Below are positions 4,245-46,364 of a stretch of 64,000 nucleotides of DNA, in pieces. Source of the DNA: a virus. Taxonomy: Duplodnaviria > Heunggongvirae > Uroviricota > Caudoviricetes. The notes under the pieces are model-generated. The model searched no databases. It was not told where the DNA came from and saw only the letters and a list, made by a program, of their open reading frames with translations. The position numbers were made by a program, and so were the translations under genes. The first letter of the stretch is position 1. The number at the start of each line of letters is the position of its first letter. The stretch lies in the IMG/VR virus record IMGVR_UViG_3300042549_006728; one strand, 5' to 3'.

Positions 4245-4901
4245 TTATATTCTTTTTTCGTGATGATCTTTTGGTAAACATAATTTTTTAATTGGTTGAT
4301 TTTTAACAATGGTTAAAATTTCATCCAAAGATAAGGGACATAAATTATTACCATCTACACCCACATCCAATGATTTACCGTCACCCAATCTTAAATTAGT
4401 TGGTAGGTGTACGTGACCATGTAAATGTATTGTACCATCATTCATACTATCCCACGATGCAATTGGGTAGTGCATACAGACAAAAGAGTATTTGTCCATC
4501 AACCCCTTACCCAAAATAGATGGTCTACGAACATCTAAAAACAAATAGTCGTGTGTTGAGGAAAAAATATCTTGTATATCTTCTTTGTTTTTGCGAATGT
4601 GGTGATCGTGATTCCCATAAGTTAAATGAACATTCTTACAGATTATTCTATTACGAAATTCCTCTATTTTCTCAAATCCACCAAAACTCCAATCACCCAA
4701 ATGAATCAATACATCATCTTCACCAACAACCTCATTAATATTATTCACTAATGTGTCATTCATATGATTGAGTGAATTAAACTTACGTGTTAGCTTTTCT
4801 GCACCAACCCAACCAGTTGTTGCAGAACAAATATTTGCGTGATTATAATGTGTATCACTCGTAAAAAATAACCGTTGCCCTTTTTCTAATACTAATTTCA
4901 T
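4245..4901 (-). CDS. Calcineurin-like metallophosphoesterase
   Basis: Motifs DTHYNH, GDWSFGG, GNHDHH and GHVH. Confidence 0.8.
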   Translation of the reverse strand: MKLVLEKGQRLFFTSDTHYNHANICSATTGWVGAEKLTRKFNSLNHMNDTLVNNINEVVGEDDVLIHLGDWSFGGFEKIEEFRNRIICKNVHLTYGNHDHHIRKNKEDIQDIFSSTHDYLFLDVRRPSILGKGLMDKYSFVCMHYPIASWDSMNDGTIHLHGHVHLPTNLRLGDGKSLDVGVDGNNLCPLSLDEILTIVKNQPIKKLCLPKDHHEKRI

Positions 4902-4924: not shown

Positions 4925-5575
4925 TTAATATTCCAAACTTTTAGGTAAAAATAATAGGGTTGGGTTCTTCTTTTGAATATCTAAGTTTGGGTATTCCTCT
5001 TTAAATTTCATCACGTCAAACTTCTTAGTGATTAAATGGTACCCATTTTTAGTTGGGATAATAGCTTCAATCTTTGGACCAACTTCATGTCCAATTGGTA
5101 TTCCTACCTCGTCAAATTTAACTTTGGTAATTGGATTACATTTATATTCAATAAATGCCATCATTACTGGACTAGGTATATGACTATCATCGATATCTAT
5201 AATCCACCTCTTCTCGTGAGTTTTAATTTGACCAACAACTGAGTCAAATAAACCTTGTTGTTTATCTACACCATCTCTAATACGTTCTGCCAGTATCGCC
5301 AACATATTAAGGGAAACATCCTTATGGTTTTGTTTCTGAACATGAATATATGCCCTCGCCTTAAACATTTCACAAAGTTGTTTAATCTCGTCATACCTCT
5401 TTTCAAGATGATCAATAGATTCTATACAGTAAGTTTTAATTGTTCTTACTGACTGATGATTATCTCTTTCCCCTTCAGGTTGATCCTTTTTACGTTTAAA
5501 AACATATAACATATAAAAATCACCTTTATCAGTGAAATGTAATAGTGGTTTTATTAATTCTAAGTTATCTATCAT
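4925..5575 (-). CDS. Hypothetical protein in the RNA-repair neighbourhood
   Basis: ORF with a 4-nt overlap to the RNA ligase gene. Confidence 0.5.
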   Translation of the reverse strand: MIDNLELIKPLLHFTDKGDFYMLYVFKRKKDQPEGERDNHQSVRTIKTYCIESIDHLEKRYDEIKQLCEMFKARAYIHVQKQNHKDVSLNMLAILAERIRDGVDKQQGLFDSVVGQIKTHEKRWIIDIDDSHIPSPVMMAFIEYKCNPITKVKFDEVGIPIGHEVGPKIEAIIPTKNGYHLITKKFDVMKFKEEYPNLDIQKKNPTLLFLPKSLEY

Positions 5576-6627
5576 AGTTTCCTAAATTTTGGTTTTAAAG
5601 CACTCCATATAATTTTATCATAATCTTTACCATCCCACATCGCAAACATAATTGCCTTTGCAATTGGATGGTGATTCTTAATATGTTCCGCAAATTCTTT
5701 CTTAGTTGGTTCTACTTCTATATCACCGTATTTACCAAATCTAAAATAATCATAAGTTTTACCTAGTTGGTTATAGTATTGGTACCAATGATACCCCAAA
5801 CTACTGGCGTAAGTTTTAATCTTACCATAAAATTCATCAGGAACATCTTTAAGAAAATCTTCTATTTTACCACCACTAGATAAAATTTCCCATACAGTTG
5901 TAGTTGATACATTTGTCATTATTTTATGTAATCTGAGATATTCTTCACCCTTTATCTTCATTCTGTCACCATTAGAAAATTTAACTACATAACCCTCTTC
6001 ATCATCTTTTATTATATTTTTTAAGGTAGTAAAATCAGTTATGCCATCATATTTTTTAACTACTCTGAATCCTATATTTTGAATTAAATTTTTTAATCTT
6101 AAATCTACATCTTCACTATGTAAGACAACTTCATTTTCGGTTTTAGTATTTATCATACCTAATAACACTAAATCCTCAAAATCATACTGTACCACTATTC
6201 GATTATCATCGTATATGATTTCAAATAAATAAGTATAATCTTTATGTAACTTATCGTAATCATATTTTTGTAATAAATCAAAACCCTTTATAGATTGTTC
6301 AGAAGTGAATGAACCTCTAGTTGCCAATACCCATTGATCACCATAATGAAATAGAATTCCTAATGAACCATCCATTTTATCATAAACGTCAAATTCAGAT
6401 GTGGTAGTATGTTTACCTTCTTCCATATTAAAGAATTTTTTAAATGGTCTACCAACAATATCACCATCGGAATTTGTTACTAATCCCCTACACATCAGAG
6501 TTATATTATCCCATAATGATTCGTATTGTACTTTTTCACTATAATTCCAAATAGTTAGATCCAAAGTAGGGTGAACTTGTTTATGTAATAAACCCTTATC
6601 AAAATATTCATTTAAAATTTCATTCAT
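5572..6627 (-). CDS. RNA ligase (Rnl1-like, ATP-dependent)
   Basis: Nucleotidyltransferase motif I YDKMDGSLG (KxDGSL); 351 aa. Confidence 0.75.
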   Translation of the reverse strand: MNEILNEYFDKGLLHKQVHPTLDLTIWNYSEKVQYESLWDNITLMCRGLVTNSDGDIVGRPFKKFFNMEEGKHTTTSEFDVYDKMDGSLGILFHYGDQWVLATRGSFTSEQSIKGFDLLQKYDYDKLHKDYTYLFEIIYDDNRIVVQYDFEDLVLLGMINTKTENEVVLHSEDVDLRLKNLIQNIGFRVVKKYDGITDFTTLKNIIKDDEEGYVVKFSNGDRMKIKGEEYLRLHKIMTNVSTTTVWEILSSGGKIEDFLKDVPDEFYGKIKTYASSLGYHWYQYYNQLGKTYDYFRFGKYGDIEVEPTKKEFAEHIKNHHPIAKAIMFAMWDGKDYDKIIWSALKPKFRKL

Positions 6628-6701: not shown

Positions 6702-8216
6702 TTAAACATTTTCTAAAACCTTAGTCAATCTTTCTCTAATTTGAGTAAGGGTTGTTTGGTTATAAAATACACCATCTTCATAGATTGCTTTTAAATCACC
6801 AGTATTTTCACCCGACCAAGTTTGTTGATCAACTAATTTATACCCACCTTCACCTGTTGTTACTCTAAGTAATCCAGTTGCAGATTTTTTGGTACCATCG
6901 TCAGTGATTGGATCTTTGAATATTTCACGACCCTCAATTGAGAATGATGGACTTCCTGACTCCGCCATATGTTTAACTTCAACATAGGTTGCTTTCATTG
7001 CGAATCCAAATGTATCACGTGTGTTGTATTGGTAAGTGAATGAACCGATACCCAAAACAACATTTGTTGATGCAAATCCTTTTGCTTCTAATCTAGCGCA
7101 AATTTCATTTGCTCTATCGATTGTAATTGAGTCGCCATAGATTGCTCCGATATGTGGATCAAGTACTTTATAACCTTGTTCGTTTATTGTTCCACCGAAT
7201 ACATCCCAAAGCAATTCAATAACACCTTTAAGTTCAGGCATTAATTCGGTTCCTTTTTCATTACCTAATTTAATTCCACAAATAATATCAACTGGATCAC
7301 CAGAGTCAGGACGAATAACCAATTTACCATCACGACTCATAATTTCTTCTTTCAAAGTAACTACGTGTTCAGTACATACTTTCCACAAGTCCCATGTATC
7401 GGATACTACTGAAAGGATTCCAGTTGGGTATGTTTCTAATAATCTACGGAATGTTTCTATTTCATCTTCTTTACCACCAGCACACATTACTGAATGTTCT
7501 GTCGCATTTACTGAACCACCAACAAAACCTTCTTCACCGTAATATTTACGAGCCCCATAAATTGCTGGAAGTGAATCTGTTCCTGAGAATGATGTTAGAT
7601 GTCCAATACCTGATGAAATAGTTGCATCGATTGAGTCTAATCCTCTCATTGAGAAGTCGTGTCCTTGCCAATCAACAAACCAAGCTCTTTCAGTATCGGT
7701 TTTTTCTTGCCAAGATGTTAATACCTTTCTGTAGTTATGTGCAATGGTTGCTGAAGTCATTGGTTTCCAAAGTAAGTTAGAGATAATCGTCTCCAAATAA
7801 TTAGTTACCCAATAAAAATCAGGATGTGTATTGTAGATTGTTAACACAGGAATCTTTTCCCCAATTACAGAACCCTCCTCAATTGACTTTACCTTAATAG
7901 GTAAGTATTGTAAATCCCAAAGAGCTTCAAAATGTGATACATCATAATCTGTGTTAAGATACATAGATAATTCTTTTTTCATTTCTCCACAAACATGTTC
8001 TTTTGGTTGGTGGAAGAAATCTTTCTCGAATGATTCATGAATTATTTTCATAACCATTTGTTGACCAAAAGACACTATCTCTTTACAGTGTTTTGGTGCG
8101 TGTTTCAAACTTCTAGGTGTGAAATTTGAATAGACTAATGTTGTACCCTTTGGATACTGCTGATGATGTCCTGTTTTGTAACCATCTGTTAAAAGTAACG
8201 GATTGATGTTTCTCAT
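6702..8216 (-). CDS. nadV: Nicotinamide phosphoribosyltransferase (NAMPT/NadV)
   Basis: LLTDGYKTGHHQQYP N-terminus; 504 aa; family hallmarks are present along the full length. Confidence 0.9.
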   Translation of the reverse strand: MRNINPLLLTDGYKTGHHQQYPKGTTLVYSNFTPRSLKHAPKHCKEIVSFGQQMVMKIIHESFEKDFFHQPKEHVCGEMKKELSMYLNTDYDVSHFEALWDLQYLPIKVKSIEEGSVIGEKIPVLTIYNTHPDFYWVTNYLETIISNLLWKPMTSATIAHNYRKVLTSWQEKTDTERAWFVDWQGHDFSMRGLDSIDATISSGIGHLTSFSGTDSLPAIYGARKYYGEEGFVGGSVNATEHSVMCAGGKEDEIETFRRLLETYPTGILSVVSDTWDLWKVCTEHVVTLKEEIMSRDGKLVIRPDSGDPVDIICGIKLGNEKGTELMPELKGVIELLWDVFGGTINEQGYKVLDPHIGAIYGDSITIDRANEICARLEAKGFASTNVVLGIGSFTYQYNTRDTFGFAMKATYVEVKHMAESGSPSFSIEGREIFKDPITDDGTKKSATGLLRVTTGEGGYKLVDQQTWSGENTGDLKAIYEDGVFYNQTTLTQIRERLTKVLENV

Positions 8217-9132: not shown

Positions 9133-10014
9133 TTAAAATACATTAATTTGTGTTAAATAATCTTTGTTAACAGTATAGTCTGAATTATATTCTACATCAT
9201 AATTTGATCTTGAATTAGTACAATATATGTGTTTAATATGCTGACTTAATTCATATAATCCGTTTGAGAAAATACCGTGAGTTATTGCTAATGAAACATT
9301 TGCCAATGGTCTTTCTTTATGTATTGCCTTAGCGATTTCGATAAAGGTTCTTCCACCGTCACAAATATCATCAACAATTAAAAAGTCATTAATTTTAGAA
9401 TCGATAAAATCTAATGGAACATGAGTACTTAAAATTTTACCACTTTTAATGTCTCTATGTTTTGACGCAATTAAAATATCTCTATCGTATTCTAATTTTT
9501 CTGCCAAATTATAAACCTTTTTCAATGCTCCCGCATCTGGTGAAACCAAAGTAAATGAATCAACTGCATTCCTTAGACTAATTTTATTATATTCTGTTAA
9601 TGCAACTTTGATGAACCAAGAATTATCTGAAACTATTAAGTTGTTAATACAGGCAGGCGCTACATCACTATGAACATCAATACATGTTACTGATTCATAA
9701 TTTTGTGCATTTATAATAGGTGCAATAACATCTCTTAAATAAGATGTACCACCAGTTACAAATTGTCTATCACTTCTCGCCCCTAATATGTATGGGATGT
9801 ATAAATGTATTTTCTCCACTTTTAGATTTCTAAGTGCCTTAGTTGCACATAATATTAATTCTAAATCTTTAAAAGAATTAAACCTAGACTTAATGGTTAC
9901 TTCTTTTATAGGAAAAGTATGACTCCCAATAACGATATCTTGTTGTCCATCAGGAAATTTAGATATCTTATATTTTATATTACTATTTTCTAAATTTTCT
10001 AAATTTAATTTCAT
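9133..10014 (-). CDS. prs: Ribose-phosphate pyrophosphokinase (PRPP synthetase)
   Basis: FPDGQ, ARSDRQ and the PRPP-binding loop LIVDDICDGGRT. Confidence 0.8.
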   Translation of the reverse strand: MKLNLENLENSNIKYKISKFPDGQQDIVIGSHTFPIKEVTIKSRFNSFKDLELILCATKALRNLKVEKIHLYIPYILGARSDRQFVTGGTSYLRDVIAPIINAQNYESVTCIDVHSDVAPACINNLIVSDNSWFIKVALTEYNKISLRNAVDSFTLVSPDAGALKKVYNLAEKLEYDRDILIASKHRDIKSGKILSTHVPLDFIDSKINDFLIVDDICDGGRTFIEIAKAIHKERPLANVSLAITHGIFSNGLYELSQHIKHIYCTNSRSNYDVEYNSDYTVNKDYLTQINVF

Positions 10015-11682: not shown

Positions 11683-12417
11683 TTATAATTCAAATGTGGG
11701 TTTTAACCAAAGTCCTCTACTGAATATTAATTTAGTAAAACCTGGTATTCTTTGTTCCACCATACCAAATAAAGTTAATGTCGCCACAGTATCATGTTTC
11801 ATCATTTTTAAAACTTCCTCTCTGATTCTTTCTGCAGATACAACATCTTTAAGTTTATCCATTATTTCAGGTTGTTCCATAGCCCTAAAAATAGACTGGT
11901 GTATGAAGAATCCTTTAGTGATAGAAAATCTTAATGCCCTAAGAAATCTGAGTGGATCATCCATCATTGTTTGTTCGGCAGGTAAAGGAGTTTTTAGTAG
12001 TCTCGCACTTAAATGACCTTTACCGCCAAATAAATCAATTAGATTCCCATTTTCATCTTCCGCCATCGAATTCAATGTGAAATCTCTTCTAATTAGATCA
12101 TCTTCTAATGTCCCTAATTCTAAAATAGGTTGTCTAGTCCCTTCTTTGTAACCGACCTCTTTTCTTGCGAGAACAAAGTCCGCAACTAATCCTTCGTTAA
12201 CATCACCTTTAGGAAATTTAGCTCTGATAGTGAACATCTCTGGAGTAGAAAGGAATATAGTAAACTCTTTATGTTCCATCCATTGTTTCATTATTTCGAA
12301 ACCTTCATCTACTGTTCTATCTATGTTGTCGAGTACAAATGTGAAGTCAATATCTTTAGATTCAACACCTAAGATACTATCTCTTACACAACCACCAACT
12401 TTATATATCTGAGGCAT
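11683..12417 (-). CDS. tRNA nucleotidyltransferase (CCA-adding) / poly(A) polymerase head-domain protein
   Basis: GGCVRD...DIDF class II nucleotidyltransferase motif; 244 aa. Confidence 0.7.
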   Translation of the reverse strand: MPQIYKVGGCVRDSILGVESKDIDFTFVLDNIDRTVDEGFEIMKQWMEHKEFTIFLSTPEMFTIRAKFPKGDVNEGLVADFVLARKEVGYKEGTRQPILELGTLEDDLIRRDFTLNSMAEDENGNLIDLFGGKGHLSARLLKTPLPAEQTMMDDPLRFLRALRFSITKGFFIHQSIFRAMEQPEIMDKLKDVVSAERIREEVLKMMKHDTVATLTLFGMVEQRIPGFTKLIFSRGLWLKPTFEL

Positions 12418-12974: not shown

Positions 12975-13135
12975 AATTAGCGGAGATTTCATCCCATCCA
13001 TTGATCACCCAAGGACTCGTTTCTAATGTATTTGGCACTCCGCCATTGTAAGTTTTCTGTTGCTTACGCCCTCATTCGTGGACTTCCGACATCCCAATGA
13101 GTTTTACCGTCCTATCGGAGTCAGGTAACCGCTTG

Positions 13136-13227
13136 TAGTCAGGACAGGACTCGAACCTGTATGTACAGTTATACAGAACTGCACATCCCTGTATGGATAT
13201 TTGCGTCTACCATTTCGCCACCTGACT
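13136..13227 (-). ncRNA. tRNA-like element with canonical acceptor, D and T arms but an atypical central module
   Basis: AGTCAGG-TG-GCGAAATGGTAGACGC ... ACAGG-TTCGAGT-CCTGT-CCTGACT-A. The middle carries two hairpins, one of them CAGTT-CTGTATA-AACTG. Confidence 0.45.
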
Positions 13228-15658: not shown

Positions 15659-15775
15659 TAGTCAGAACAGGATTCGAACCTGTGTTTACACTTTACTTGT
15701 ATTAGTTGTGTCCGATAGATTGGGTATCAATACATTTCCCGCACCACCTGCTCTTAACCACTGAGCTACCTGACT
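15659..15775 (-). ncRNA. tRNA-like element with a type-I D-arm and an insert of about 65 nt replacing the anticodon arm
   Basis: AGTCAGG-TA-GCTC-AGTGGTTA-GAGC-A ... ACAGG-TTCGAAT-CCTGT-TCTGACT. Confidence 0.45.
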
Positions 15776-15869: not shown

Positions 15870-15994
15870 TAGTCAGGACAGGATTCGAACCTGTATGATA
15901 ACTTATGAGCAGTCTTAACGGGTCTTTCGAGGTTACTCGCGTTATCTTTACTATTAACCTTTATTCATGCGTCTACCAATTCCGCCACCTGACT
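15870..15994 (-). ncRNA. tRNA-like element with a central insert of about 74 nt
   Basis: AGTCAGG-TG-GCGGAATTGGTAGACGC ... ACAGG-TTCGAAT-CCTGT-CCTGACT. Confidence 0.45.
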
Positions 15995-29311: not shown

Positions 29312-29459
29312 TTAAATGATAATCAGGATTAGATTATATACGTGCTCTACCAACTGAGCTACCGCCGCCCCGAAGGACAACGGACAGGATTCGAACCTGC
29401 GACACCGAGCTTAAAAGGCTAATGTAATTGTTGCTGAAACAATCCTTTTATTATCATTT
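29312..29459 (-). ncRNA. Y RNA-like / circularly permuted tRNA-like RNA (YrlA-type candidate)
   Basis: Terminal stem AAATGATAAT...GGATT pairs with AATCC...ATTATCATTT, with an internal bulge. Internally the RNA order is T-arm GCAGG-TTCGAAT-CCTGT, then the hairpin CCGTTGTCC-TTCG-GGGCGGCGG (acceptor-like stem capped by a UUCG loop), then D-arm TA-GCTC-AGTTGGTA-GAGC. A second hairpin ATTGT-TTCAGCA-ACAAT is also present. Confidence 0.55.
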
Positions 29460-30672: not shown

Positions 30673-30756
30673 GTATAAATGTTCAGGAAGACTTTTTGTT
30701 TTCAAATTTCCGATCTTGATTTTTTTATTTTGCTGAAATCTTCCTTTTAACATTTG

Positions 30757-36985: not shown

Positions 36986-37051
36986 TAAAGGGCCGATAGG
37001 ATCACTATCAACTTCCACCACTTCGTTTTTAAGGAACAAAGAAACCTAATG

Positions 37052-37449
37052 TGGAGATGGAGGGAGTCGAACCCTCGTCCAATCAAATTGCCATTAAAAA
37101 TTCATTCACAAGCTTAGTTCATTTTTCTTAATGAACAAAATATTTGGTTTTATTTATAACATGGTTACCAACAACCCTGTTTCGATAATTGTTTAGAGAG
37201 TTTTACCGTCAACTCTATTTTTTACACCTTTCTGTTTCTAGGTAAGTGTGACCCACCGATTAAACTAATTCCATTAATTCAATCTCTTCAACCACCGCTG
37301 AGCGAGTGATAGAAGTTGGGATACTCATCATATCCTCTGTGTTGTATGCGTTTGCATTTATATTTTGATAGGTGTTTAAGGGTTTCCATCTAACCCTGCT
37401 TGCATCATTTCAAACTCAACCTTTGACTGTCAAATCCAAAACCATCCCC
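37052..37449 (-). ncRNA. ssrA: tmRNA (SsrA)
   Basis: 5' end GGGGATGGTTTTGGATTTGACAG..., 3' end ...GAGGG-TTCGACT-CCCTC-CATCTCC-A. Acceptor GGGGATG/CATCTCC with G3:U70. GCA-AAC-GCA-TAC... resume frame at about nt 95. About 398 nt. Confidence 0.8.
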
Positions 37450-43118: not shown

Positions 43119-43769
43119 ATGGTGTATAGAATTATTATTACCCAGAATGGTAAGAAAAGAAAAATACTTTATGAGGGGAGAAATGAGAATACTGCAAAGG
43201 AAAAATACTTTTCCTCAAAAGATGAAAATATAGTTTTATTACCTAAAAAAAACAATACATATAAGAAAATTAAACCAGTGAGTTTTGAAATTCTTTTATT
43301 GAAAGAAAAGGAATGGAATGATGTGGATTACTTTGATAGGGATGACTTAGGTAGAACTATACCTGTAACATTAAATAGTGATAAATGGAACTTAATACAT
43401 AAATCAGAATATTTTTATGAGGAGAAATTTAGTGTGTTTGGTTATAAAGAAAGGATGGACACTAAAAAAATATTAAAACTTTTTTTACTTAATAGAACTA
43501 AAGAAGATAAAATTAAACAAGTTAATTACATTAACAATAAATTATTAATATATCAGAATTATGATTTTGATATAATTATCTGTAAAAATTCTTATGATAC
43601 TAAAAGACTATACAATGTCCTTATTGAATTTTGTGAAACGAATAATGTGGATAACATTTTATTTACGGGATCAGTAAATAAAAAAAATAGGACTAAAACT
43701 TATAAAAGAATTGTAGAAAAAACTGGGTGGACAATTAATAAAACTTATAGATCATCCACCCGTCCTTAA
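43119..43769 (+). CDS. Hypothetical protein (plus strand)
   Basis: 216-aa ORF in a strand-switch region. Confidence 0.5.
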   Translation: MVYRIIITQNGKKRKILYEGRNENTAKEKYFSSKDENIVLLPKKNNTYKKIKPVSFEILLLKEKEWNDVDYFDRDDLGRTIPVTLNSDKWNLIHKSEYFYEEKFSVFGYKERMDTKKILKLFLLNRTKEDKIKQVNYINNKLLIYQNYDFDIIICKNSYDTKRLYNVLIEFCETNNVDNILFTGSVNKKNRTKTYKRIVEKTGWTINKTYRSSTRP

Positions 43770-44243
43770 TTATTCTACTCCCACTTGAAATTTATTTGAT
43801 ATATCCTCAATTAAATCATTAAGTCTATCAAACTCACTCTCATCTTTAATGTGGACAGGGTTAATACACTTAATTTCTTCCTTATCATCGGTAGGTAAAA
43901 AGAATAGTCTAACTTCATCCCCTTTATTTTCCAAATAGGTTCTCACACTCTCACCATAAGTTTCTATCATCTCCCTATTGGCAAATAAATCTCTCTGTAA
44001 GTAAAAAACTAAAATTAAAGGTGTGTAACTACTATTTTGTGTTTTAAATTTCTCTAACGTAACGTATTCGATATCCTTAGTCGATACATCATATGTTTCA
44101 CTTAACATATTTTCTTTTTGAGTTCTATCTTCTTCACCAACCGCATCTTTACATTCGATAGGATTTCCGTTATCATCATTTACATAAATTAAATAATGTC
44201 TAATCCCTTTTTCTAATCTGTTATTTTTAGTAACAATTTTCAT
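43770..44243 (-). CDS. Hypothetical protein
   Basis: ORF only. Confidence 0.5.
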   Translation of the reverse strand: MKIVTKNNRLEKGIRHYLIYVNDDNGNPIECKDAVGEEDRTQKENMLSETYDVSTKDIEYVTLEKFKTQNSSYTPLILVFYLQRDLFANREMIETYGESVRTYLENKGDEVRLFFLPTDDKEEIKCINPVHIKDESEFDRLNDLIEDISNKFQVGVE

Positions 44244-44307
44244 AAATTATATTTTGTCAATTTTATTATTTTAAATAATTTTAATAAAAATATTTTAAAC
44301 TGTAAAT

Positions 44308-44349
44308 GTTATAAAATAAAAAAGGGAAAGTATTTCTACTCTCCCTTTT
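44308..44349 (-). terminator. Factor-independent terminator (minus strand) closing the rsr transcription unit
   Basis: aaaggga...tcccttt hairpin followed on the minus strand by TTTTATTTTAT. Confidence 0.55.
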
Positions 44350-44865
44350 AAATTTTGGTGTCGGAATGGTGATCCTTCTTTTATTTTCGGTGGTAGAGTA
44401 CCCACCCTAAGTATTTTAATCCGTTCTAGTTCGGATGTCTTATTATTTAGTTGAGACAAAACCAACTACTATTTTTTACTTGTAGTAAACAAGAGGTATG
44501 TTTTACGACCTAAAGTGTAGGGGTTTCCTACGTTTAAACTCTCCTATGGTCGCCACTTTATATTTTTTTTCGAGTAAAGTGGTAAAACTCTGATCTATCT
44601 GCTTTTTTTCTAGTAAGTGTTTGCAGAAACCATTCGTTTATCGGACTTAAAGGGAATTCGTATATTCCCAATCCATTACACCTAATAACATTGTGGTATC
44701 GGAATTGTCTGACACTTTACATAACTCTGAGTGGTCCCCCGCTTTCACGGTTTACACCCTTATGGTTATATGGGTTATCAAAGCCCCTCTTTCTTAGCTG
44801 AATTGTAGTTTTTTAATTTTGCTGCAATTATTCCTTAGCTACCACAAATATTTTCAAAGAACTTA
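44350..44865 (-). ncRNA. Structured non-coding region 3' of rsr; candidate Y RNA locus
   Basis: About 516 nt with no long ORF, between the rsr stop and the terminator. Local GC enrichment and multiple perfect hairpins (GGGAAT-ATACGA-ATTCCC, GGTGG-GTACTCTA-CCACC, CCACTTTA...TAAAGTGG) plus a GTCCGA motif. Confidence 0.35.
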
Positions 44866-46281
44866 TTATACAGTTATTACACTATATCTTTTATCATTAA
44901 CAGTATCCATCATTATGGATTCTGGTGTCATATTTTTACCCCCTAATAGAGACTTTAGTATTGATGGACTAAATCCCGAAACTAATGCAGTTCCGTTTTT
45001 ATCAAACTCAACTGGAAAGTTACCACCACTAGAATTTAAATTCCAATATACTACATTAGGCATTTTATATCCTGCCTCTTTATACATTTCCTCAATCATC
45101 GATTGTGCACCCAAACTATTTCTTCTAGTTGCCTGATTGAATTGCATATCAGATAAAATTAATATCTTAGTCGGCATAAATTCCTCACTAATATTATTGT
45201 TTTTTGCCTGAGTTAGAATTAAGTTAAATACTTTTTCTAAATTAGTACTCATACCCCAATCTGAACTTATTAATTGTGATAGTCTTTGTTCTAAACTACC
45301 TTTTAAATACTGTAATTCAGGACTTTCGGAAAATGTAATAAATGCATCTTTGAAGTTACCTTCACTTCTTTCAGAAATATACATACCTAATGATACTGCA
45401 ATATCCATACAAGTTAGGTTTGGGTTACCTCCCGCTGGACATTCCATAGACCCTGAAACGTCAACAACTGGTAAAATTCTTTCTTCAGATCCCTCCATCC
45501 AATTAGGTAGTGACTCCCACTGTTTACTATTTACTACTTCATCACCACCCATCTTCATAGATTTTATAATGTCGTATGGGTAAACCGCACCTGCATTAAC
45601 TTTTGCAGTTCCTTCAATTAGAGAATTTTTATACTCCTCATATCTTTCAATATCATTTCTTTTAAATGATTTTTGGTATCTTGATGATGCCAATGAAGGA
45701 ATTTTTGAGTAGTCGATTGATTCCCAATCTTTTGAACACATCTTAGTTTCTACAACATTAGTTAAATCAACTAACATTTTTCTATATTGTTTAGGAGTAG
45801 TTTTAAATAATCTTCTAAGTTTATTTGCCACTTCACCTTTTCTAGGCATCCATTTTGCACAAAGTCCATCACCGTTAGTTAATGCGGTTTTGATAATTTC
45901 AAACATTTCATCCTCTAATTCGGTACCCATAAGGACTAATATATCATCCCATCTACCAAACTCTGAAATAAAATTTATATTTTTTCTAAGTGTTATAGGT
46001 GAGTTGACAGATAGATACTCAATAACGTCTCTAAATACTTTTCTTTCACCCGCACCACTTCTAATATCTCTAACCCAAAAAAGTATTTTTGTTGCCACTA
46101 AAGGATTTTCTAAAAAGGCTTGATTAAAAAGTTTATTAACCAATTCTTTAGATTTTCCTCTCATCGCCCCAATAGCGAAAAATAAATCCACACACTTATT
46201 AAGTGTCGTAGGATTGGTAACCATACCATTATCGGTTAATGTTACATTTTGTTCTTCCGTATTAGTTAACTGAGTGTCCAT
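44866..46281 (-). CDS. rsr: Ro60/Rsr orthologue (TROVE domain plus von Willebrand A domain)
   Basis: LFFAIGAMRGKS aligns with LFALAIYTQRRDGM; YPYDIIKSM with HPFHILIAL; ERILPVVDVSGSM with KRFLLAVDVSASM at the MIDAS site. The C-terminal vWA block order matches human Ro60. Confidence 0.75.
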   Translation of the reverse strand: MDTQLTNTEEQNVTLTDNGMVTNPTTLNKCVDLFFAIGAMRGKSKELVNKLFNQAFLENPLVATKILFWVRDIRSGAGERKVFRDVIEYLSVNSPITLRKNINFISEFGRWDDILVLMGTELEDEMFEIIKTALTNGDGLCAKWMPRKGEVANKLRRLFKTTPKQYRKMLVDLTNVVETKMCSKDWESIDYSKIPSLASSRYQKSFKRNDIERYEEYKNSLIEGTAKVNAGAVYPYDIIKSMKMGGDEVVNSKQWESLPNWMEGSEERILPVVDVSGSMECPAGGNPNLTCMDIAVSLGMYISERSEGNFKDAFITFSESPELQYLKGSLEQRLSQLISSDWGMSTNLEKVFNLILTQAKNNNISEEFMPTKILILSDMQFNQATRRNSLGAQSMIEEMYKEAGYKMPNVVYWNLNSSGGNFPVEFDKNGTALVSGFSPSILKSLLGGKNMTPESIMMDTVNDKRYSVITV

Positions 46282-46321
46282 AATCTTTTTTTATCGTTTG
46301 TGAATGTAAATATATATACTA

Positions 46322-46364
46322 TTTTTTAAAAAGTCAAATATTTTTTTAAAAAAATTTAAATTTT
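46322..46364 (-). promoter_or_regulatory. Sigma-70-like promoter-like element upstream of rsr (TTGACT-N17-TATATA)
   Basis: Minus-strand reading is ATATTTGACTTTTTAAAAAATAGTATATATATTTACA. It shares the AAAAGTCAAATA core with 29790 and 31880. Confidence 0.35.

Follow-up and report, generated by a model that had tools for sequence, protein, structure and literature searches.

A Ro60-fold phage protein encoded beside a structured two-domain RNA: a candidate divergent Ro60/Y-RNA-type ribonucleoprotein

Ro60-Y RNA particles are mainly familiar from animals and a few bacteria, the described systems including Xenopus Ro60 (1YVP), the Rsr-Yrn1-PNPase assembly of D. radiodurans (RYPER) and the Salmonella rsr-yrlBA-rtcBA operon. 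In Ro60, the Y RNA sits on the outer surface of the ring, whereas misfolded RNA ends are taken into the central hole. Here, we analyzed a 64,000-nucleotide (nt) stretch of tailed-phage DNA (Caudoviricetes; IMG/VR record IMGVR_UViG_3300042549_006728), hereafter called the window, in which a gene for a 471-amino-acid (aa) protein with a predicted Ro60-like fold is followed, on the same minus strand, by a structured RNA of ~490 nt. We consider it probable, with moderate confidence, that the two form a divergent Ro60/Y-RNA-type ribonucleoprotein, in which the RNA would be the cognate, Y-RNA-like partner.

Phage Ro60 proteins accompanied by Y-like RNAs are already known, i.e., with YrlA in mycobacteriophages (PMC4201824) and with Yrl1 and Yrl2 in Thermus phage phiLo (PMC12135203), and such systems have newly come under study with the phiLo work of 2025 (PMC12135203) and a knockout screen in the Felixounavirus Bas63 in 2024 (PMC11482910). 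YrlA is defined by a T arm, a closed acceptor stem and a D arm set on a terminal stem (PMC4201824). In phiLo, the Yrl RNAs, which were found by their CGAA motif, bind phiRo60 in vitro (PDB 9KOP, 9L5Y), and the complexes in which Ro60 and Yrl RNAs join the host PNPase slow this enzyme (PMC12135203). In the Bas63 screen, gp130 was reported to be Ro60-like in structure and to act against the Ppl defence; the authors raised the speculation that Y RNAs might be among the annotated transfer RNAs (tRNAs), and RNAs in the tRNA spacers were not identified (PMC11482910).

The window gene lies where the initial annotation had placed it (Table 1), and its product was assigned by Pfam profile search to DUF7788 (176.6 bits, 5.8e-52) and DUF2828 (116.5 bits, 1.7e-33), both above cutoff, and by PHROGs to phrog_850 'RNA-binding protein' (525 bits, 2.8e-157). 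The TROVE match that had been anticipated did not appear, there being no TROVE (PF05731) match in the Pfam search and only a vWA_Ro60 score of 13.5 bits (E=0.068), under the cutoff of 27.7. A sequence search of the PDB returned only a match of 42-100 aa, over the region of the metal-ion-dependent adhesion site (MIDAS), to the TROVE protein of Thermus phage phiLo (E about 2e-3), and a profile query of the PDB sequences brought no gain over the single-sequence query. An AlphaFold model computed from 139 diverse homologues reached a predicted local distance difference test score (pLDDT) of 94.8 and a predicted template modeling score (pTM) of 0.93; the model made from the single sequence, without homologues, was not usable (pLDDT 43). 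The model shows an alpha-helical, HEAT-like ring that a C-terminal vWA domain closes; the MIDAS of this domain is intact. By Foldseek, its six top matches in the PDB, which span the whole chain (E 8e-9 to 3e-6, template modeling scores 0.57-0.64) at 12-18% identity, were without exception Ro60/TROVE structures, and all other PDB matches were restricted to the vWA domain. The MIDAS motif VVDVSGSM, which had been noticed at the outset, is present, with D274, S276, S278, T346 and D378 invariant among the 139 homologues. Since the whole-chain match is to Ro60 while the protein belongs to a separate DUF2828/DUF7788 family with no TROVE match, the earlier label of Rsr/Ro60 orthologue has to be given up: the modeled architecture is that of Ro60, yet the family is distant and separate, and we call the protein Ro60-like. 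The phage protein-RNA anti-CRISPR AcrIIIA1 was also checked as a relative and proved unrelated.

The DUF2828/DUF7788 family comprises 6,807 clusters at 50% identity (E<=1e-3) and is present in 711 GenBank phage records, 708 of which span at least 80% of the query. Its carriers include KVP40-like vibriophages, Cronobacter phage S13, Felix O1-like phages and phages of Campylobacter, Listeria, Staphylococcus, Enterococcus and Bacillus. Members have already been loosely labeled 'Ro-like' or 'RNA-binding'; those of mycobacteriophages, annotated 'Ro-like RNA binding protein', share 33% identity with the window protein (2e-77), and Bas63 gp130 shares 40% over its full length of 471 aa (E=4e-119).

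Downstream of the gene, the initial annotation had described a hairpin-rich stretch of ~516 nt that lacks a long open reading frame (ORF) and runs to a minus-strand terminator. This holds: the next gene starts at 44243, and from the stop codon to that point no ORF reaches 60 aa; the stretch allows short ORFs of 31-56 aa. The terminator, a hairpin with a U tract, recurs in every aligned relative with differing stems. In six IMG/VR relatives with proteins 80-83% identical to that of the window, the ORF-free stretch is 86% identical per column, and the RNA is thus conserved at least as strongly as the protein sequence. Conservation begins a few nt past the stop codon and ends at the terminator. 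Further copies were recovered via two conserved 15-17-mers and then an nhmmer profile, which found 33 loci with 18 distinct sequences and still detected the RNA behind proteins just 55-62% identical to the window's; wherever the locus was long enough, the RNA lay directly 3' of the DUF2828 gene and on the same strand.

The RNA is made up of two domains (Table 1) separated by a 9-nt joint that contains no terminator. Domain 1 is closed by helix a (UGUGGUA/UACCACA) and helix b (GGAAU/AUUCC), with the bulge GCUAA, the unpaired flanks UUGCAGCAAAA on the 5' side and GA on the 3' side, and a GAAA-capped hairpin (44750-44739) in its interior. Double changes were seen in 17 of the 28 pairs predicted by RNAalifold, helices a and b included. 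In this domain the loop UUUGAUA of a GGG(G)…CCC hairpin can also pair with UGUCAGA after the next stem-loop (44772-44786 and 44713-44719, minus strand); both pairings are kept in relatives, so a pseudoknot is possible. Domain 2 is closed by helix a (GGUGU/ACACC) and helix b (GAAUGGU/ACCAUUC), its 5' strand reading AAAC-CGAAUGG-UUUCUGCAAAC and its 3' strand CG, with a clade-specific hairpin inserted in the bulge (44674-44643) and about ten internal helices. Its 66 pairs in 12 helices are 95.1% paired across 17 sequences, compared with 31-48% when the 3' partners are slid by 1-3 columns, and there are 24 double-change pairs, compared with 12.9±1.9 in shuffles (0/500) and 1-9 in the slid controls. 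Even the long-range helix a covaries (GGUGU/ACACC, GAUGU/ACAUC, AAUGU/ACAUU). Whole hairpins are missing in some clades, and the interior is therefore modular. The minimum free energy (MFE) fold of the single sequence recovers both closing stems and has z = -2.64, with none of 100 shuffles as stable.

These data bear on the view that no functional RNA exists here, the stretch being either a missed protein gene, read in an alternative code or frame, or a set of chance hairpins in AT-rich DNA. Such a view can point to the 29.6% G+C of the window and to the short ORFs, but the lengths of indels between relatives do not follow a triplet pattern, substitutions occur in pairs across helices and the slid and shuffled covariation controls fail. 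Two results detailed below oppose it further, i.e., 56 instances of a shared motif versus about one in dinucleotide shuffles, and an independent covariance model that finds a sister copy at E=3.5e-10. A missed ORF or chance structure is excluded in practice by the covariation and shuffle controls; we regard it as effectively refuted, its remaining likelihood being close to nil. More than a set of chance hairpins, the stretch behind the gene is a strongly covarying structured RNA.

The RNA is not of a catalogued kind. Rfam 15 gave no relevant match over the whole window at the gathering score, nor over 44150-44950 (801 nt) at E<=10, where Y_RNA (RF00019), YrlA (RF02553), tRNA, ROOL, GOLLD and HEARO were all missing and only chance-level matches (sroB, ctRNA and similar; E about 1-6) appeared. 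In 44290-44870 there was no T-arm-like element and no tRNA or YrlA match. The expectation of usual Y RNAs behind the gene, to be recognized by Rfam models, was thus not borne out, the RNA being ~490 nt in two domains and not one or two Y RNAs of ~100 nt. Likewise, the GTCCGA motif first noticed in the stretch lies inside the inserted hairpin of domain 2 and is not conserved, relatives having GTCCAA or GACCCAA. RNase P RNA, 5S rRNA and group I/II introns, raised by the short motifs AAGUCC and CGACCAUAGG, received no covariance-model support. When the gene and RNA were compared by blastn with 50,697 GenBank phages, matches fell inside the gene only, so the window-type RNA is absent from cultured phages at the sequence level.

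At the level of structure, however, the closing stems with (C/G)GAAU and UUnCWGCAA are conserved elements that recur widely, as a module of the form helix a – A-rich bulge (NAAAR/C) – helix b (GGAAU or CGAAUGG) – (U)UUnC(A/U/G)GCAA(A/C) – interior – helix b' – YG(N) – helix a'. Within 900 nt downstream of DUF2828 genes (76.9 kb from 87 non-redundant loci), a simple pattern scan found 56 modules, compared with 16 in the other 1,062 kb, both strands included, i.e., 0.73 versus 0.015 per kb or a 48-fold enrichment downstream of the genes; 20 dinucleotide-preserving shuffles of the same downstream regions held a mean of 1.15 (range 0-3). Helix sequences differ wholly among clades (e.g., UGGGUAG/CUACCCA with GAAUC/GAUUC, GUUCAUA/UAUGAAC with AGGUG/CAUCU, and GUUUGUA/UACAAAC with AAAUGC/GCAUUU), whereas the unpaired motifs are constant. 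The first module typically begins 3-60 nt past the stop codon. Loci missed by the strict scan mostly hold variants, often in tandem, such as GGUUCC-UUA-CAGCAA ... GGAACC; a relaxed test was positive at 46 of 86 loci versus 2.7% of control windows, and the two tests jointly account for roughly three quarters of the loci. Seven short modules, all from other phages, served to build a covariance model, R1, which gave 37 matches at E<=0.01 in 99 other loci, all but one of them on the strand of the gene. R1 misses domain 2, and also an RNA at 29317-29456 described below, because their interiors are too long for the model. It also gave a weak match at 43550-43600 of the minus strand (16.4 bits, E=0.06), inside the plus-strand ORF 43119-43769, which is probably chance. 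The nhmmer RNA profile found nothing in the distant DUF2828 loci L007-L017, nor in most of L098-L177, and the link between clades is visible only at the level of the structural motif.

The module also occurs away from the gene. A 79-nt, stem-only copy fills the spacer between tRNA-Tyr and tRNA-Trp in one of the tRNA arrays of the window (AAAUGUU-AAAA-GGAAGA-UUU-CAGCAAA ... UCUUCC-UG-AACAUUU) and is matched by R1 at 30679-30753 of the minus strand (43.9 bits, E=3.5e-10 for the whole window on both strands). A second copy, the 29317-29456 RNA, exactly fills the spacer between tRNA-Ser and tRNA-Asp. Its stem consists of UGAUAAU/AUUAUCA, AAAA, GGAUU/AAUCC, UUUCAGCAAC and UG, and carries a permuted, tRNA-like core with a T arm (29400-29384), a closed acceptor-like stem of 9 bp with a UUCG loop (29383-29362) and a canonical D arm (29359-29344). 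In a local search, Rfam YrlA (RF02553) matched this core with 33.2 bits (E=6.1e-6), below the gathering score of 69; the alignment covers model positions 24-84, which is the tRNA-like core only, and the stem is not aligned. A YrlA-like RNA is thus present in the window, but in the tRNA array and not behind the gene.

Similar arrangements were found in cultured phages. The tRNA array behind gene gp047 of the Felix O1-like phage wV8 holds four modules, in spacers between the tRNA genes and after them (Table 1), the fourth of which has a perfect T arm GAAGGUUCGAUUCCUUC, a closed acceptor-type stem of 7 bp and a D arm GUGUAAUGGUAGCAC, in that order; the same order is seen in module 4 of Bas63, which has four copies behind the gp130 gene, and in the module behind the S13 gene. 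The region is kept in at least 237 Felix O1-like records. In both Bas63 (L185, MZ501086; 30065-30913) and wV8 (L179; 4745-5531), the four modules lie between tRNA-Glu, tRNA-Met and tRNA-Asn and past tRNA-Asp, and small minus-strand coding sequences (bas63_0137, bas63_0138 and wV8 gp048), which may be mis-calls, are annotated over two of them. In the numbering of MZ501086, the Bas63 modules occupy 82064-82144, 82231-82302, 82686-82767 and 82773-82912. Behind the 'Ro-like RNA binding protein' gene of mycobacteriophage Tourach (L178; 4405-4790), a 378-nt gap holds three tandem stems, each with UAACAGCAA after it, and then a terminator, and the middle RNA, again with T arm, closed stem and D arm, aligns end to end with Rfam YrlA at 23.1 bits. 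Domain 2 of the window RNA carries, at the junction of bulge and helix, ACGAAUGG, which resembles both the YrlA consensus GNCGAAN0-1G (PMC4201824) and the CGAA of the Thermus phage Yrl RNAs (PMC12135203); elsewhere this element is AGGAAU (domain 1) or AGAAGACC (Felix O1-like modules). On account of the shared T/acceptor/D order, the sub-threshold YrlA scores and the CGAA likeness, the DUF2828-linked RNAs look like a divergent sister group of YrlA/YrlB, among which the 44357-44846 RNA, having two modules and lacking a tRNA-like part, is unusual for its large size.

Such findings could also be taken to mean that the modules are protein-independent phage non-coding RNAs of the tRNA world, e.g., decoys or regulators of host tRNA-targeting nucleases, tRNA-modifying enzymes or ribosome-linked factors, which adjoin the gene simply by sharing an RNA-gene island and a transcription unit with it. 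DUF2828 genes do adjoin tRNA genes or arrays in many phages, modules lie between tRNAs, some have tRNA-like cores, and the window encodes a CCA-adding enzyme, an RNA ligase and a transfer-messenger RNA (tmRNA). Nevertheless, the window-type clade and many others have no tRNA within kilobases and still carry the module behind the stop codon, with a strong bias of strand and position, and the only Ro60-fold systems studied experimentally bind stem-bulge-stem and tRNA-like RNAs (PMC4201824, PMC12135203). We judge this explanation unlikely, although it retains some weight. Separately, unusually long or odd tRNA-like genes (90-121 nt, one with a 4-nt anticodon) directly follow DUF2828 genes at loci L011-L013 and L015 (in all of these about 100-400 nt after the gene) and in S13 (L181; 3369-3611); these may be further tRNA-mimicking partner RNAs and not tRNAs.

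With regard to transcription, the gene and RNA lie between a promoter-like site and the terminator, and no conserved internal promoter was seen between them in the alignments of relatives; the simplest view is therefore that one transcript carries the gene and, as its 3' portion, the RNA. A candidate internal promoter at the end of the gene was dismissed, its TATAAT over the stop codon not being kept in relatives. Loci L032, L020 and L049 have a conserved insert of ~45 nt (…CCUAUAGGUGAUGAAAGAUACUCGG…) between the stop codon and domain 1. At L145, a promoter-like TTGACT-17-TATATT follows right past the stop codon (about 80-105 nt after it), which suggests independent transcription of the RNA in that clade. 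The lack of a conserved internal promoter, the start of the RNA a few nt past the stop codon, as befits part of the mRNA, and the position of the first module 3-60 nt after the stop in most clades would all suit a cis-acting element of the 3' untranslated region of the DUF2828 mRNA, serving as a stabilizer against 3' exonucleases or as an autoregulatory operator, in place of a trans-acting partner. However, 490 nt with about 20 covarying helices exceed what stabilization needs, and the module is also found detached from the gene, in inter-tRNA spacers of the window, wV8, Bas63 and L038, from which tRNA processing would probably free it as a small RNA. Promoter-like sequences between gene and modules, or between modules (L145, L146 group), point the same way. 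A purely cis-acting role accordingly appears unlikely to us, though it too keeps some weight.

We therefore return to a divergent Ro60/Y-RNA-type ribonucleoprotein as the preferred reading. The module follows the DUF2828 gene family in many phages, and so the RNA is probably the partner of the protein. Fold, RNA structure, motif and gene-RNA linkage are observed, as is the partial YrlA likeness of some members; from these we infer binding, stoichiometry, effector and phenotype, as follows. The gene would encode a Ro60-fold, RNA-binding ring of the DUF2828/DUF7788 branch, and the RNA, transcribed behind it from a shared promoter to a shared terminator, would be its cognate Y-RNA-like partner, co-transcription favoring stoichiometric assembly. 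The RNA would act as two tandem modules, each closed by a stem formed from its own two ends, the stem-bulge-stem being the putative docking site by analogy with the 5'/3' stem of Y RNAs and their CGAA-type motif. A further factor, e.g., PNPase or another host exoribonuclease, a tRNA-handling protein or a defence protein, may be recruited or blocked by the elaborate interiors, and two modules could hold two rings, or one ring and another factor. The two further RNAs with the same stem, one with a tRNA-like core, might be freed from the tRNA array by tRNA-processing enzymes and serve as additional ligands. The likely role would be control of RNA decay or repair, or countering host defence during infection.

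Several points weigh against this reading. Binding of the RNA by the protein is deduced solely from adjacency and analogy, and the 44357-44846 RNA has neither an Rfam Y_RNA or YrlA match nor a tRNA-like domain, while its 155 and 326 nt are far above the size of known Y RNAs. The CGAA-like element is found in domain 2, but its counterpart is GGAA in domain 1 and AGAA in the Felix O1-like modules. In some members of the family, e.g., KVP40 and about one quarter of the metagenomic loci, no gap follows the gene, and the presence of the module in tRNA arrays means that it may serve tRNA-related functions independently of the protein. Finally, the Bas63 phenotype was described in a preprint, and for the protein alone (PMC11482910). 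The initial idea of a Ro-Y RNA ribonucleoprotein has thus kept its core, i.e., a Ro60-type protein with a candidate partner RNA just 3' of it, as supported by fold, synteny, covariation and a shared motif, and has lost specifics such as orthology and an Rfam match. A bolder proposal, which we put forward tentatively as falling somewhat short of probable, is that the CWGCAA module marks an unrecognized, very widespread family of Y-like RNAs that are cognate ligands of DUF2828 Ro60-fold proteins, the ribonucleoprotein being a counter-defence or RNA-decay device. Such a family would extend from 65-nt hairpins of tRNA arrays, via tRNA-mimicking forms, to the 490-nt, two-module RNA of a marine jumbo phage, and would be spread over Felix O1-like, T4-like, Listeria, Staphylococcus and Mycobacterium phages in thousands of lineages; its large RNA may scaffold two rings and a host factor, with the action of Bas63 gp130 on Ppl as a hint.

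Table 1. Positions of the features described, in the window unless another phage is named.
Feature	Position	Strand	Basis or remark
Promoter-like site TTGACT-17-TATATT	46309..46337	(-)	Upstream of Ro60-like gene; consensus scan, 10/12; pattern match only
Gene for Ro60-fold protein, 471 aa	44866..46281	(-)	DUF2828+DUF7788 / PHROG 850
Leader GUUCUUUGAAAAUAUU, stop codon to domain 1	44847..44865	(-)	Kept in alignments of relatives
RNA domain 1, 155 nt	44692..44846	(-)	Module scan; RNAalifold; MFE fold recovers closing stem
RNA domain 2, 326 nt	44357..44682	(-)	Structure alignment; 12 helices
Intrinsic terminator, hairpin + U tract	44313..44349	(-)	Terminator scan; closes gene-RNA transcription unit
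YrlA-like module RNA	29317..29456	(-)	Module scan; Rfam YrlA core match; MFE fold
Stem-only module, 79 nt	30677..30755	(-)	Fills tRNA-Tyr/tRNA-Trp spacer; R1 + module scan
tmRNA	37049-37449	(-)	113 bits; predicted tag peptide long, ANAYNTEDMMSIPTSITRSAVVEEIELMELV
tRNA nucleotidyltransferase (CCA-adding enzyme)	11683-12417		PF01743, phrog_24229
RNA ligase, T4 Rnl1-type	5572-6627		
Phosphoesterase	4245-4901		
wV8 modules	L179 4745-4822, 4911-4980, 5307-5386, 5394-5531		
Bas63 gp130	MZ501086 80319-81734		Directly upstream of Bas63 tRNA array

The window looks like a piece of a large phage genome. Its nearest relatives are IMG/VR metagenomic viral contigs of up to 226 kb, and relatives in the protein collection lie on contigs reaching 288 kb, many of which derive from marine samples. 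The RNA-rich context that had first been described is largely real: the window has 28 tRNA genes, arrayed on the minus strand at 12.9-16.3 kb and 28.4-31.7 kb, as well as the tmRNA and the genes for the Rnl1-type RNA ligase and the tRNA nucleotidyltransferase, but a polynucleotide kinase was not found. Three tRNA calls on the minus strand are atypical, i.e., 13135-13227 (93 nt, 4-nt anticodon UACA) and 15659-15775 and 15870-15994 (117 and 125 nt), the latter two fitting the tRNA model only via large insertions; they could be intron-bearing tRNAs or tRNA-like RNAs. The window also encodes NAMPT, a DnaJ-like protein and DNA methylases. NAMPT and a protein with a PF00156 phosphoribosyltransferase domain, which may be a counterpart of phosphoribosyl pyrophosphate synthetase, lie at 6702-8216 and 9133-10014 of the minus strand; Bas63 has a comparable pair in bas63_0079 and bas63_0080, and the pair suggests a module for nicotinamide adenine dinucleotide salvage or counter-defence.

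Rfam 15 and the literature searched contain neither the CWGCAA stem-bulge-stem module as an RNA signature of DUF2828, nor its occurrence in inter-tRNA spacers of model phages, nor the 490-nt, two-module form. Our data suggest that DUF2828 proteins, mostly annotated 'hypothetical' or 'RNA-binding', have a Ro60 fold and come with a recognizable, covarying RNA signature missing from Rfam, and that this signature points to genetically testable candidate partner RNAs in Bas63 and other Felix O1-like phages, S13 and mycobacteriophages. In Bas63, the spacer RNAs are better Y RNA candidates than the annotated tRNAs. Annotations would be corrected where small coding sequences are currently called over these RNAs. 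The window RNA, the largest and most elaborate in the present analysis, is a candidate for structural work on multi-ring or host-enzyme organization.

Compared with the Ro60/Rsr systems, the window protein shares the whole-chain fold, i.e., a helical ring and a vWA domain with MIDAS, and has a partner-type RNA beside its gene on the same strand; it differs in having no TROVE Pfam match, in its 12-18% identity, in being about 50-60 aa shorter and in belonging to a separate, very large family. An RNA-repair neighborhood is likewise shared in some phages, e.g., with RtcB near the gene in a Listeria phage. In Listeria phage LMTA-34 (L183; 1474-4479), the DUF2828 gene lies 1.3 kb upstream of a gene for an RtcB-type 'tRNA splicing ligase', with a gene for a metal-dependent phosphohydrolase between them, an arrangement that recalls the Salmonella rsr-yrlBA-rtcBA operon.

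The ends of each domain of the window RNA pair into a bulge-interrupted stem whose purine-rich motif may be a counterpart of the protein-binding motif of Y RNAs (GGUCCGA, GNCGAAN0-1G or CGAA), and some DUF2828-linked RNAs carry tRNA-like T/acceptor/D modules; in contrast to Y RNAs, which are typically about 70-200 nt, the 44357-44846 RNA has 490 nt in two domains, and neither the GGUCCGA bulged helix nor a tRNA-like domain. The CWGCAA element was found neither in the motif descriptions consulted (PMC4201824 and PMC12135203) nor in the Rfam YrlA consensus. With YrlA (RF02553), the 29317-29456 RNA, module 4 of wV8 and Bas63 and the S13 and Tourach RNAs share the terminal stem, T arm, closed acceptor stem and D arm; an A-rich run ahead of the 3' strand of the stem is common to both groups, and the CGAAUG of domain 2 is like GNCGAAN0-1G. 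Family RNAs nevertheless score 23-33 bits versus a gathering score of 69, and the 44357-44846 RNA gives no match.

Bas63 differs from the window in that its modules are short (70-140 nt) and interleaved with tRNA genes, whereas those of the window are fused into one large RNA behind the gene. From the phiRo60-Yrl system the locus differs in that phiRo60 was deposited as a TROVE domain-containing protein and its RNAs are small and lie upstream of the gene. What the two have in common are adjacent stem-bulge-stem RNAs and, in domain 2 of the window RNA, a CGAA-like motif, and the several stoichiometries of phiRo60-Yrl, together with its complexes with host PNPase, provide a plausible model for the two-module RNA of the window.

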